7,140 nucleotides of DNA from Escherichia coli (GTDB lineage Bacteria; Pseudomonadota; Gammaproteobacteria; Enterobacterales; Enterobacteriaceae). The position numbers and the translations under genes are program-made. Shown in pieces: positions 3,252 through 7,140 of this stretch (position 1 is its first letter; each line of letters opens with the position of its first letter). Under the pieces are notes generated by a model. It was not told the origin of the DNA. It did no database searches and saw only the letters and a program-made list of their open reading frames with translations. The stretch lies in assembly GCF_003334385.1 (NCBI RefSeq), contig NZ_QOWN01000073.1. The stretch is one strand, 5' to 3'.

Positions 3252-3744
3252 AATGACCTCACAACACACAGAACATAAAGTACCGCAACTATTGCTACTA
3301 ATAGCAAAAATAGCAGCAGAATCAATACAGGATAAAAATTTCTGTCGATTTTCAGATTAAATAATAACCATTCGGTATTTTGTCGCTAAAGAATGTTAGA
3401 ATGAATCTGTGCGTCTACGGGCGCTCTCCGGAACACACATGTTGATTAATTTTCACACAACAACGTACCAGCAAAAAGCATCATCCAGGGTATTGCAGGT
3501 ACGGGTTTCCTGCCGGGAATAAACATAAACAGTTTCCCCGGAGTAACGCTTTCAGAAAACTGCCCTCCTGAAGAAGAATAAAATAAAGAAGATGACAGTT
3601 CCTGCACTGAATGCTGAGTACAATATTCTATGGACAGGATGACATTTTTATAAATAACAAAAACCATTTAATACTGATACATCAATAAAATACTTCCTCC
3701 CTGCTGACACAGATAAAATGCAACATTTTTTCTTCAAATACTTC

Positions 3745-3753
3745 TGTATAATC
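3745..3753 (+). promoter_or_regulatory. candidate sigma70 extended -10 element (TGTATAAT) inside the AT-rich region
   Basis: tgTATAAT at 3745-3752 on the + strand with no good -35. AT-rich DNA produces many such matches, so this is weak. Confidence 0.2.
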
Positions 3754-4084
3754 GCCAGCCAATGATGAGAATGGATTAAAATAACACTTCTTCGACAAAC
3801 ACAAAAACCAGCCTTCATTTTCACATCATCATCCAGTTTTAATTAAACCCTGACGAGCGACAGTATTTCAGTTCAGGAATTAAAAGCCAGCTATTACTCA
3901 GTAAAAACACCACCAACTAATAATATCTCAGCAGATATTTCCTGACCAGGATGACACATTTATTAAAGATTTTTAACAGGACACTTCACATTACTGAACG
4001 CTATTCCGACAGTATCACTACACAAATAAAAAAGGGAACTGGATAAATATTCATGCCGGAAGAATGGTGTAACAAAAGCATTTA

Positions 4085-4097
4085 ATCATTACGTGCG
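4085..4097. repeat. 13-bp direct repeat, copy 1 (atcattacgtgcg)
   Basis: Exact 13-mer atcattacgtgcg at 4085-4097, repeated at 4209-4221; the two copies flank the 30-bp palindrome. Confidence 0.6.
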
Positions 4098-4110
4098 TAT
4101 TCCTCTCTAT

Positions 4111-4140
4111 TCGATCACGGTTTGGCCAAACCGTGATCGA
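4111..4140. repeat. perfect 30-bp palindrome (15+15, no spacer) carrying two GATC sites
   Basis: tcgatcacggtttgg|ccaaaccgtgatcga is exactly self-complementary; GATC at 4113-4116 and 4135-4138; central TGGCCA. Read directly from the sequence. Confidence 0.9.
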
Positions 4141-4208
4141 TTCAGATGCCATTTTGCAAGTACGCATGACCCGGAAGGGAAACACTTAACAACATGGTAT
4201 CAACAGAT

Positions 4209-4221
4209 ATCATTACGTGCG
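4209..4221. repeat. 13-bp direct repeat, copy 2 (atcattacgtgcg)
   Basis: Exact second copy of the 13-mer at 4085-4097. Confidence 0.6.
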
Positions 4222-4527
4222 CACTCTTATAAAAATACACAGCAGAAGCAAGATAACTCTAAACGTAAATTTAATATCTCCCACTGACTGCCCCGACAAT
4301 ATACTGAAAAATACTCACCTCAGTAAACATAAACACACCTGATAATCAGGCTGCAAGATGAATATTTTTCTCCTTTACGGAGTAATCAGCCTGCTGTTTA
4401 ACAATAACCGCGTATTTTCATGGAAGGATATCACCCAATAACGGATAACTCCTGCCCTCCTTCATGTTAATACGCAACATCCCCATCGATTCCAAACAAT
4501 TTCAGACAGATATTATCTCCGTGAATC

Positions 4528-4567
4528 CCCCGCCACCTTTCCGGTGTGCGGGGTTTTGTCTTTTTTC
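4528..4567 (+). terminator. intrinsic (Rho-independent) terminator-like hairpin plus T-tract immediately upstream of the GTPase start codon
   Basis: Stem ccccgccacc (4528-4537) pairs with ggtgtgcgggg (4543-4553) as 10 bp with one bulged T, loop tttcc, followed by ttttgtctttttt (4554-4567). GTPase ATG is at 4583. Confidence 0.5.
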
Positions 4568-4582
4568 ACCGGGAATACATGT

Positions 4583-5455
4583 ATGAATCCGTCTGATGCC
4601 ATTGAGGCAATTGAAAAACCACTTTCTTCCCTGCCTTACTCGCTTTCCCGTCACATCCTGGAACATCTGCGCAAACTCACCAGTCACGAACCCGTGATTG
4701 GCATTATGGGTAAAAGCGGGGCCGGTAAATCCTCACTCTGTAATGCGCTGTTTCAGGGGGAGGTCACCCCGGTCAGTGATGTTCACGCCGGCACCCGGGA
4801 AGTGCGGCGCTTCCGTCTGAGTGGTCACGGTCACAGCATGGTTATCACTGACCTGCCCGGGGTGGGCGAGAGCCGGGACAGGGATGCAGAGTATGAAGCC
4901 CTGTACCGTGACATTCTGCCTGAACTGGACCTGGTGCTGTGGCTGATTAAAGCCGATGACCGGGCCCTGTCTGTGGATGAGTATTTCTGGCGACACATCC
5001 TGCAGTGCGGACATCAGCAGGTGCTGTTTGTGGTGACACAGGCCGACAAAACGGAGCCCTGCCATGAATGGGATATGGCCGGCATTCAGCCCTCTCCCGC
5101 ACAGGCACAGAACATTCGCGAAAAAACGGAGGCGGTATTCCGTCTGTTCCGGCCTGTACATCCGGTTGTGGCCGTATCGGCCCGCACCGGCTGGGAACTG
5201 GATACGCTGGTCAGTGCGCTCATGACAGCGCTTCCCGACCATGCCGCCAGTCCCCTGATGACCCGCCTGCAGGACGAGCTGCGCACGGAATCTGTCCGCG
5301 CTCAGGCCCGTGAGCAGTTTACCGGTGCGGTGGACCGGATATTTGACACAGCGGAGAGCGTCTGTGTTGCCTCTGTTGCACGCACGGTTCTGCGTGCCGT
5401 CCGTGACACAGTGGTCTCTGTTGCCCGCGCGGTATGGAACTGGATCTTCTTCTGA
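4583..5455 (+). CDS. yeeP: YeeP/YkfA/YfjP-family GTPase (50S ribosome-binding GTPase-like, 290 aa), apparently intact
   Basis: Translation MNPSDAIEAIEKPLSSLPYSLSRHILEHLRKLTSHEPVIGIMGKSGAGKSSLCNALFQGEV... contains G1/Walker A GKSGAGKSS, G3 DLPG and G4-like TQADK. I recognise the sequence as the island GTPase found directly upstream of flu. The track ORF 4544..5455 begins inside the upstream hairpin; ATG at 4583 is the more plausible start. Stop TGA 5453-5455. Confidence 0.88.
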   Translation: MNPSDAIEAIEKPLSSLPYSLSRHILEHLRKLTSHEPVIGIMGKSGAGKSSLCNALFQGEVTPVSDVHAGTREVRRFRLSGHGHSMVITDLPGVGESRDRDAEYEALYRDILPELDLVLWLIKADDRALSVDEYFWRHILQCGHQQVLFVVTQADKTEPCHEWDMAGIQPSPAQAQNIREKTEAVFRLFRPVHPVVAVSARTGWELDTLVSALMTALPDHAASPLMTRLQDELRTESVRAQAREQFTGAVDRIFDTAESVCVASVARTVLRAVRDTVVSVARAVWNWIFF

Positions 5456-5539
5456 ACCTGTTGTGGATGATGTCCTCCTTGCCTCTGAGTCTGCTCACAA
5501 AAGCGCTGTTTTCGTTACTGTCTCTCTTGTCCGTGCAAT

Positions 5540-5610
5540 AGCTTGATAATAGAATAAAACGATCGATACCTATTTTATCGATCGTTAATATCGATCGCTA
5601 TACTAATAAT
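5540..5610 (+). promoter_or_regulatory. agn43 (flu) promoter / phase-variation switch: OxyR-binding region with three Dam GATC sites
   Basis: Three CGATCG motifs with GATC at 5561-5564, 5580-5583 and 5593-5596 (spacings 19 and 13 bp), ~200 bp upstream of the flu ATG. This matches the known Dam/OxyR epigenetic switch of agn43. Exact -35/-10 and TSS cannot be fixed from sequence alone; TTGATA at 5543-5548 is a candidate -35. Confidence 0.8.
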
Positions 5611-5760
5611 AACTCCTGTTAGCAACGTGCGCAGATACACACAGACATGAGATTCAGGGAACAACAGAGCCACACGTCAGAAACTTCCGTCAGCCGGACC
5701 TCCGGCACTGTAACCCTTTACCTGCCGGTATCCACATCTGTGGATACCGGCTTTTTTATT
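5567..5760 (+). ncRNA. isrC: agn43 leader RNA / IsrC-like small RNA (prematurely terminated flu 5' leader); boundaries approximate
   Basis: The 3' end is defined by the intrinsic terminator at 5724-5760; the 5' end is assumed to be the flu TSS near the GATC cluster. From memory, an sRNA (IsrC) is annotated in the yeeP-flu intergenic region of E. coli K-12; coordinates here are inferred, not verified. Confidence 0.4.
5724..5760 (+). terminator. intrinsic terminator in the flu leader, ~30 nt upstream of the flu start codon
   Basis: Perfect 12-bp stem gccggtatccac (5724-5735) / gtggataccggc (5740-5751), loop atct, followed by ttttttatt (5752-5760). Confidence 0.75.
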
Positions 5761-5788
5761 CACCCTCACTCTGATTAAGGAAATGCTG

Positions 5789-7140
5789 ATGAAACGACAT
5801 CTGAATACCTGCTACAGGCTGGTATGGAATCACATTACGGGCGCTTTCGTGGTTGCCTCCGAACTGGCCCGCGCACGGGGTAAACGTGGCGGTGTGGCGG
5901 TTGCACTGTCTCTTGCCGCGGTCACGTCACTCCCGGTGCTGGCTGCTGACATCGTTGTGCACCCGGGTGAAACAGTGAATGGCGGAACACTGGTAAACCA
6001 TGACAACCAGTTTGTATCCGGAACAGCTGATGGCGTGACTGTCAGTACCGGGCTTGAGCTGGGGCCGGACAGTGACGAAAACACCGGCGGGCAATGGATA
6101 AAAGCGGGTGGCACAGGCAGAAACACCACTGTCACCGCAAATGGTCGTCAGATTGTGCAGGCAGGAGGAACTGCCAGTGATACGGTTATTCGTGATGGCG
6201 GAGGGCAGAGCCTTAACGGACTGGCGGTGAACACCACGCTGGATAACAGAGGTGAGCAGTGGGTACACGGGGGAGGGAAAGCTGCCGGTACAATTATTAA
6301 CCAGGATGGTTACCAGACCATAAAACATGGCGGACTGGCAACCGGAACCATCGTCAACACCGGTGCAGAAGGTGGTCCGGAGTCTGAAAATGTGTCCAGC
6401 GGTCAGATGGTCGGAGGGACGGCTGAATCCACCACCATCAACAAAAATGGCCGGCAGGTTATCTGGTCTTCGGGGATGGCACGGGACCCCCTCATTTACG
6501 CCGGTGGTGACCAGACGGTACACGGAGAGGCACATAACACCCGGCTGGAGGGGGGTAACCAGTATGTACACAACGGTGGCACGGCAACAGAGACGCTGAT
6601 AAACCGTGATGGCTGGCAGGTGATTAAGGAAGGAGGAACTGCCGCGCATACCACCATCAACCAGAAAGGAAAGCTGCAGGTGAATGCCGGCGGTAAAGCG
6701 TCTGATGTCACCCAGAACACGGGCGGTGCACTGGTTACCAGTACAGCTGCAACCGTCACCGGCACAAACCGCCTGGGAGCATTCTCCGTTGTGGCGGGTA
6801 AGGCTGATAATGTCGTACTGGAAAATGGCGGACGTCTGGATGTGCTGAGCGGACACACAGCCACTAATACCCGCGTGGATGATGGCGGAACGCTGGATGT
6901 CCGCAATGGTGGTACCGCTACCACCGTATCCATGGGGAATGGCGGGGTACTGCTGGCCGATTCCGGGGCCGCTGTCAGTGGTACCCGGAGCGACGGAACG
7001 GCATTCCGTATCGGAGGCGGTCAGGCGGATGCCCTGATGCTGGAAAAAGGCAGTTCCTTCACACTGAACGCCGGTGATACGGCCACGGATACCACGGTAA
7101 ATGGCGGACTGTTCACCGCCAGGGGCGGCACACTGGCGGG
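5789..7140 (+). CDS. flu: antigen 43 (Ag43) self-associating autotransporter adhesin, 5' partial (first ~450 codons; continues beyond window end)
   Basis: ATG at 5789 with AAGGA at 5777-5781 (7-nt spacer). Translation begins MKRHLNTCYRLVWNHITGAFVVASELARARGKRGGVAVALSLAAVTSLPVLAADIVVHPGETVNGGTL..., the extended autotransporter signal peptide of Ag43 (predicted cleavage after ...PVLA, about nt 5944). It continues with the beta-helix passenger repeats (GGTA..T.VN.GG pattern). Recognised from recall of Ag43; no stop codon in frame before 7140. Confidence 0.95.
   Translation, partial: MKRHLNTCYRLVWNHITGAFVVASELARARGKRGGVAVALSLAAVTSLPVLAADIVVHPGETVNGGTLVNHDNQFVSGTADGVTVSTGLELGPDSDENTGGQWIKAGGTGRNTTVTANGRQIVQAGGTASDTVIRDGGGQSLNGLAVNTTLDNRGEQWVHGGGKAAGTIINQDGYQTIKHGGLATGTIVNTGAEGGPESENVSSGQMVGGTAESTTINKNGRQVIWSSGMARDPLIYAGGDQTVHGEAHNTRLEGGNQYVHNGGTATETLINRDGWQVIKEGGTAAHTTINQKGKLQVNAGGKASDVTQNTGGALVTSTAATVTGTNRLGAFSVVAGKADNVVLENGGRLDVLSGHTATNTRVDDGGTLDVRNGGTATTVSMGNGGVLLADSGAAVSGTRSDGTAFRIGGGQADALMLEKGSSFTLNAGDTATDTTVNGGLFTARGGTLA

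Follow-up and report, generated by a model that had tools for sequence, protein, structure and literature searches.

In Escherichia coli K-12 the leader of agn43 (flu) is said to contain a Rho-independent terminator that works in vitro and is separated by 28 bp from the main start codon downstream. Antitermination reportedly takes place by an unknown mechanism active in early growth, with read-through transcripts declining as cultures age, and an upstream in-frame start codon is said to raise downstream expression. All of this is reportedly to be found in a study of the K-12 agn43 leader terminator by Wallecha, Oreh, van der Woude and deHaseth (J Bacteriol 2014;196:2728).

The RNA annotated in this leader in K-12 is IsrC. 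Its function has been given as unknown (PMC3175480), it is listed among Hfq-independent sRNAs (PMC3933206) and its overexpression produced no biofilm, motility or fimbrial phenotype (PMC4606813). It has been called cis-acting, the mechanism being undisclosed, in work where lycopene yield rose 6.2-fold when dCas13a was directed at it (PMC10783499). A passage in PMC5389530 gives antitermination of IsrC as a control of flu, citing Wallecha 2014, which is in keeping with the claim of a preliminary description of the present DNA that the agn43 leader helps to control expression. The element, its RNA product and the role of the terminator are therefore already known, through the Rfam family IS102, the isrC annotation and Wallecha 2014, and for this reason the present sequence adds little to the picture of Ag43. 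The modest new points are all comparative: a terminator-to-start cassette is found in about three-quarters of complete E. coli genomes, is nearly invariant and stands behind two unrelated leader bodies. The subject matters since Ag43 drives autoaggregation and biofilm formation and its gene is a standard model of epigenetic phase variation.

Two broader classes of system invite comparison. The trp, his and pyrBI attenuators and the riboswitch-type leaders likewise place a terminator between promoter and start codon and let read-through set expression; in the agn43 leader, unlike these, no conserved antiterminator helix was found (see below), and it has no regulatory leader peptide with diagnostic codons. 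The sRNAs derived from 5' UTRs in an E. coli survey (Adams et al. 2021, PMC7815308) are likewise stable short RNAs made from an mRNA leader by way of an intrinsic terminator; trans targets have been demonstrated for some of these, whereas none is known for IsrC.

The DNA analysed here, referred to as the window, is a 7,140-nucleotide stretch of an E. coli contig. It comes from a genomic island carrying, in this order, genes for an HTH regulator, a hypothetical protein, a YfjI-family protein (on the opposite strand), a GTPase-family protein and Ag43. The GTPase-family CDS (4583-5455) lies upstream of agn43 on the same strand, and the same order, yeeP-like GTPase gene, isrC and flu, is seen in MG1655. 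The interval of about 1.3 kb between the YfjI-family and GTPase-family genes (3252-4582) holds only short ORFs, carries no annotation in the matching RefSeq genomes and matches none of the Rfam families. The features of the agn43 leader are as follows.

5527-5555, + strand: σ70 promoter of agn43/isrC, TTGTCC, 17-nt spacer, TAGAAT (promoter scan)
5561-5564, 5580-5583 and 5593-5596, + strand: three GATC sites of the Dam/OxyR phase switch (sequence; role from PMC2909390)
5561-5757, + strand: RNA equivalent to IsrC/IS102, the agn43 leader ending at the T tract, about 197 nt (Rfam RF00124 and alignment to MG1655 isrC)
5647-5778, + strand: 43-codon ATG ORF crossing the terminator, out of frame with agn43, its TAA overlapping the Shine-Dalgarno sequence (ORF list and frame analysis)
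5694-5707, + strand: small upstream hairpin, GCCGG-ACCT-CCGGC, a helix of the Rfam consensus structure present in IsrC-type leaders only
5724-5751, + strand: intrinsic terminator hairpin, perfect 12-bp stem, loop ATCT (sequence, consensus scan, ViennaRNA fold and shuffles)
5752-5757, + strand: T6 tract, the release site (sequence; K-12 IsrC is annotated as ending at the base that corresponds to 5757)
5777-5791, + strand: Shine-Dalgarno sequence AAGGAA (5777-5782) and agn43 ATG (5789-5791), a block conserved in all alleles
5789-7140, + strand: 5' part of agn43 (flu), encoding the autotransporter adhesin Ag43, the CDS running off the window (RefSeq annotation of matching loci)

The identity of the leader is clear from several directions. 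In a search with all Rfam families, IS102 (RF00124) matched 5559-5764 on the + strand over model positions 1-206 of 206, with 256.4 bits and E = 9e-50 against a gathering score of 46, and no other family matched anywhere in the window. The MG1655 ncRNA gene isrC (b4435; 2071317-2071511, 195 nt, ending 28 nt before flu, which starts at 2071539) aligns with the window from G5561 to T5757, where the T tract ends. The transcript start is accordingly placed at about 5561, on the first base of the first GATC, and with an end at 5757 the terminated RNA comes to about 197 nt. The preliminary description had equated K-12 IsrC with the agn43 leader, and the full-length Rfam match and the alignment uphold this. 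It had begun the leader at 5567 and put the RNA at about 190 nt: the leader stands and the size was roughly right, with the start moved to about 5561 and the length to about 197 nt by the alignment. ATG 5789 is the annotated agn43 start in a RefSeq genome 99.8% identical to the window.

Upstream of the RNA, the promoter has the same hexamers and spacing as those given for K-12 isrC in a genomic SELEX study, TTGTCC-17-TAGAAT (PMC3946193), and its -10 element TAGAAT is invariant among eight aligned alleles. The agn43 phase switch has a single OxyR site, and three GATCs inside it are targets of Dam (PMC2909390); here the three are clustered at and just after the transcript start, beside the -10 element, and conserved across alleles, as in a Dam/OxyR phase-variable promoter. 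The window as a whole is poor in GATC, with 15 sites against 27.2 expected (200 of 200 shuffles had at least 15), and three of the 15 are packed into 36 nt at the agn43 switch. The small hairpin at 5694-5707 is specific to one kind of leader: its RNAalifold pairs (columns 171-176/189-194) are kept in eight IsrC-type rows and broken in the two Cah-type rows described below.

The terminator itself reads, from 5724 to 5757, GCCGGTATCCAC-ATCT-GTGGATACCGGC-TTTTTT. Its hairpin has 12 pairs, eight of them G-C, closing a loop of four, and alone folds at -22.9 kcal/mol (ViennaRNA). It was the top-ranked terminator-like site in a consensus scan of the window, although that scan returned eight sites against 6.9 expected. 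Weak matches being this common, the site was given its own test, in which 300 dinucleotide-preserving shuffles of the whole window were inspected on both strands. In none was a T-rich tail preceded by a perfect 12-bp stem, while stems of at least 10 bp arose in one and of at least 8 bp in 18. A G+C-rich stem, a short loop and T6 adjoining the stem on the transcribed strand are the marks of an intrinsic terminator, and the hairpin starts about 163-165 nt past the inferred transcript start of a co-oriented promoter (5527-5555, + strand). The hairpin is thus predicted to be a genuine and strong transcription stop signal within the agn43 (flu) leader. The preliminary description had noted a perfect 12-bp stem with a U-tract between the promoter and the flu ATG, about 30 nt before the start codon; the sequence and shuffles bear out the stem and tract, and the distance from 5757 to the ATG at 5789 is a 31-nt spacer. 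Only the extent, put at 5724-5760, needed trimming, since the T run ends at 5757 and 5758-5760 reads ATT. A terminator-like call on the - strand (5586-5558) was set aside as the near-palindrome of the first two GATC sites (AACGATCGATA...TATCGATCGTT), which belongs to the symmetry of the OxyR/Dam site.

We therefore favour, with a probability of about 0.88, the reading that this is the 5' leader of phase-variable agn43 (flu) and that it holds a strong Rho-independent terminator acting in cis as an attenuator. In a phase-ON cell (three GATCs methylated, OxyR off) the polymerase would start at about 5561 from TTGTCC-17-TAGAAT and, some 163-165 nt further on, would transcribe the 12-bp hairpin and U6. 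Polymerases releasing at U6 would leave the IsrC/IS102 RNA of about 197 nt, and those reading through would continue across the 31-nt spacer, with its Shine-Dalgarno sequence, into the ATG and so produce agn43 mRNA. As release would give the one and read-through the other, the read-through fraction would set the amount of Ag43 made per ON cell, and attenuation would form a second, graded layer of control over and above the ON/OFF switch. Judging from the strength of the hairpin, most transcripts initiated at the switch would stop there, as the preliminary description supposed. In the K-12 Term-seq supplementary lists examined (PMC7815308) a + strand 3' end at the IsrC terminator is absent, but MG1655 cultures are often phase-OFF and this absence consequently weighs little. 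The anatomy, family membership, isrC correspondence, conservation and pattern of variation were obtained here; termination and antitermination in K-12 are taken from the literature.

Comparison with K-12 IsrC shows the same locus, the interval between a YeeP-like GTPase gene and flu, with 88% identity over the intergenic region. The promoter hexamers, three GATCs, hairpin, T6, Shine-Dalgarno sequence and start codon are common to both. The stem, by contrast, is perfect in the window, where A5744 gives a U-A pair in place of the U-G of K-12, and the loop is ATCT rather than GTTT. Four extra nucleotides lie between terminator and Shine-Dalgarno sequence, the spacer being 31 nt against 28 in K-12. 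The upstream ATG of K-12 is replaced in the window by a GTG that is followed by a stop after seven codons, and the ORF from ATG 5647 in the window is out of frame with agn43. The 28 bp said to separate terminator and start codon in K-12 fits the MG1655 coordinates, and the in-frame ATG reported there fits our frame analysis. By analogy the window allele would be expected to behave as that of K-12. Having no mismatch or wobble in its stem, against one G-U pair in that of K-12, it would, we infer, terminate at least as well.

The leader terminator is widespread in E. coli. Of 5426 complete E. coli genomes, 4114 carry a 60-nt block around the hairpin, at 7257 places in all, and the best place in every record but one was at least 90% identical. 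The full IsrC-type intergenic region (coverage at least 80%) is present in 1868 of the 5426. Commoner than this is a second type of leader, found upstream of cah and Ag43/Cah-family genes in 3431 complete E. coli genomes (examples are L003 1310-1546 and L010 1531-1766). These Cah-type leaders, for instance in E. coli O157:H7, have the -10 element, three GATCs, hairpin, T6, Shine-Dalgarno sequence and start as in the window and clear the Rfam IS102 gathering score with 75-77 bits, but the leader is about 30 nt longer and its body is unrelated. Identity to the window is 95% over the hairpin block but 32%, effectively unalignable, over the 150-190 nt or so between the GATC block and the hairpin. 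In all cases the IS102 element was found only immediately upstream of Ag43/Cah genes.

Variation within the hairpin follows the pattern expected under selection on its structure. Among ten alleles, ten of the 12 stem pairs are the same throughout, another is U-A in some and U-G in others and the last is broken, by an A-G mismatch, in one allele only, which also has T5, while two of the four loop positions vary. No double compensatory changes were found in the stem among these ten alleles, whose diversity is too low for covariation, so structural selection is argued from the pattern of conservation. Recombination that transfers the start of the gene en bloc could also contribute to conservation of the block.

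Outside E. coli, an exact-pattern scan of one genome per species gave a single match, to a 2.3-kb contig labelled as from a metagenome-assembled genome (MAG) of Collinsella sp. (L008; JAIJJM010000521.1). This carries an E. coli-type GTPase-isrC-agn43 junction and is probably contamination of the actinobacterial MAG bin, so that the element is, as found here, one of E. coli only. The same contig (- strand) has lost the third GATC site, which reads CGATAG, and in E. coli SCU-101 (L012, 1338-1385) the second is lost and reads CCAATAG; loss of one GATC should alter phase switching in each. In E. coli PigCaeca_2 (L009, around 1490-1545) unrelated sequence joins inside the hairpin, leaving the 3' arm (TACCGGC), T6, Shine-Dalgarno sequence and ATG; the phase-switch promoter is absent upstream and the RefSeq CDS begins at an upstream start. 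The Ag43/Cah gene there would effectively be without a terminator.

Several other readings of the leader deserve consideration. One is that read-through is set by a ribosome which starts at the upstream ATG (5647), trails the polymerase and blocks formation of the hairpin. Every allele examined does have an ATG ORF that starts past the transcript start and crosses the terminator, in nine of 12 its stop is the TAA within the Shine-Dalgarno sequence, 10 nt ahead of the agn43 start codon, and the upstream ATG of K-12 is in frame with flu. Such a crossing ORF, however, arises in 59-82% of dinucleotide-shuffled leaders (66% for the window allele), and its start position and reading frame vary between alleles, so the ORF by itself is not evidence. 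The in-frame arrangement of K-12 is not kept in the window, where ATG 5647 is preceded by CACACAGAC and lacks a recognisable Shine-Dalgarno sequence. We consider control by such a ribosome unlikely. At the position of the K-12 upstream ATG, the GTG of the window opens a seven-codon ORF (5622-5650) whose stop overlaps the ATG of the 43-codon ORF (ATGA, 5647-5650).

A terminator in this position might instead serve mainly to insulate the switch from transcription of the upstream GTPase-family gene, keeping OFF cells OFF. That gene is co-oriented and ends at 5455, 105 nt before the agn43 transcript start; there is no other strong terminator from it to agn43, and nearly all loci fetched keep this order of genes. 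Yet the agn43 promoter lies upstream of the terminator, so agn43's own transcripts would be attenuated too, and a pure insulator would sit before the promoter. Insulation as the main role is accordingly doubtful, but since it is compatible with attenuation rather than an alternative to it, it is plausible as a side benefit.

IsrC could, thirdly, be mainly a trans-acting sRNA, the terminator defining its 3' end and the RNA pairing with other mRNAs. It is catalogued as an sRNA gene and in Rfam, it ends in an sRNA-like hairpin and U tract, its level shifts in ybeY mutants (PMC3933206) and after AZT treatment, and there is the 6.2-fold gain in lycopene yield with dCas13a (PMC10783499). The last effect could equally run through flu, which is on the same transcript. 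What is conserved between the two leader types is only the GATC block, under OxyR/Dam constraint at the DNA level, and the terminator; the body of about 150 nt in which a seed would be located is wholly replaced in the commoner Cah type, and the element always lies directly upstream of an Ag43/Cah gene. Taken with the lack of phenotype on overexpression (PMC4606813), the unconserved body weakens the case, and together with the listing as Hfq-independent (PMC3933206) it sets IsrC apart from Hfq-dependent trans-acting sRNAs. A mainly trans-acting IsrC is thus highly improbable and a trans-acting role unsupported, in agreement both with the literature (PMC3933206, PMC4606813, PMC10783499) and with the doubt that the preliminary description had voiced over any such function of the terminated RNA.

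Finally, the palindrome can hardly act as DNA, as a site for protein binding or recombination, for although it is a perfect 12-bp inverted repeat and the L009 rearrangement junction lies inside it with only the 3' arm left, the T6 is confined to the transcribed strand with no T run on the other, the U-A/U-G alternation preserves an RNA pair and not DNA symmetry, and the annotated 3' end of IsrC coincides with the T tract.

If the terminator acts as a cis attenuator, the question becomes how polymerases pass it. No conserved antiterminator helix was found when seven alleles were folded with the 3' arm of the terminator withheld, which gave only weak, allele-specific pairings. In these folds the terminator was favoured over the alternatives by 15.5-20.8 kcal/mol, the cost of forcing the 3' arm open. 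The best alternatives were a 6-bp helix, CCGGCA/UGCCGG, in the IsrC type and a different, distal pairing in the Cah type, with none common to both. These folds argue against an antiterminator helix encoded in the leader as the cause of read-through. A 6-nt match of GAUACC (5565-5570) to the 5' arm of the hairpin was judged coincidental, being lost in K-12.

Motifs for known antitermination factors were sought in 5561-5788, namely the RfaH ops element (GGCGGTAGnnTG) and boxA: neither ops, with up to two mismatches allowed, nor a Nus-factor boxA, with up to three, had a match there. As one terminator-to-start cassette stands behind two unrelated bodies, the determinant of read-through would not be encoded in the leader body, which narrows the search to the conserved ends, translation or a trans factor. 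A factor or process acting in trans that recognises those ends (the GATC-derived 5' hairpin, the terminator block or ribosomes), or else a trans role for the terminated RNA, is a speculative suggestion that we think distinctly unlikely. Were it true, a dedicated antitermination factor of this kind, whose action might vary with growth phase, would add a new regulator to the control of Ag43/Cah adhesins throughout E. coli.

Elsewhere in the window, the + strand at 4392-4404 reads TGCTGTTTAACAA, which agrees with the rrn boxA consensus TGCTCTTTAACAA at 12 of 13 bases. The GTPase-family gene starts about 180 nt further downstream (4583), and the best promoter-like site of the window (4186-4213) lies upstream. 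About 0.03 boxA-like 12-mers with at most one mismatch are expected per window. The exact 12-mer, absent from the other loci, occurs at the same relative place in L002, L007, L012 and L013.
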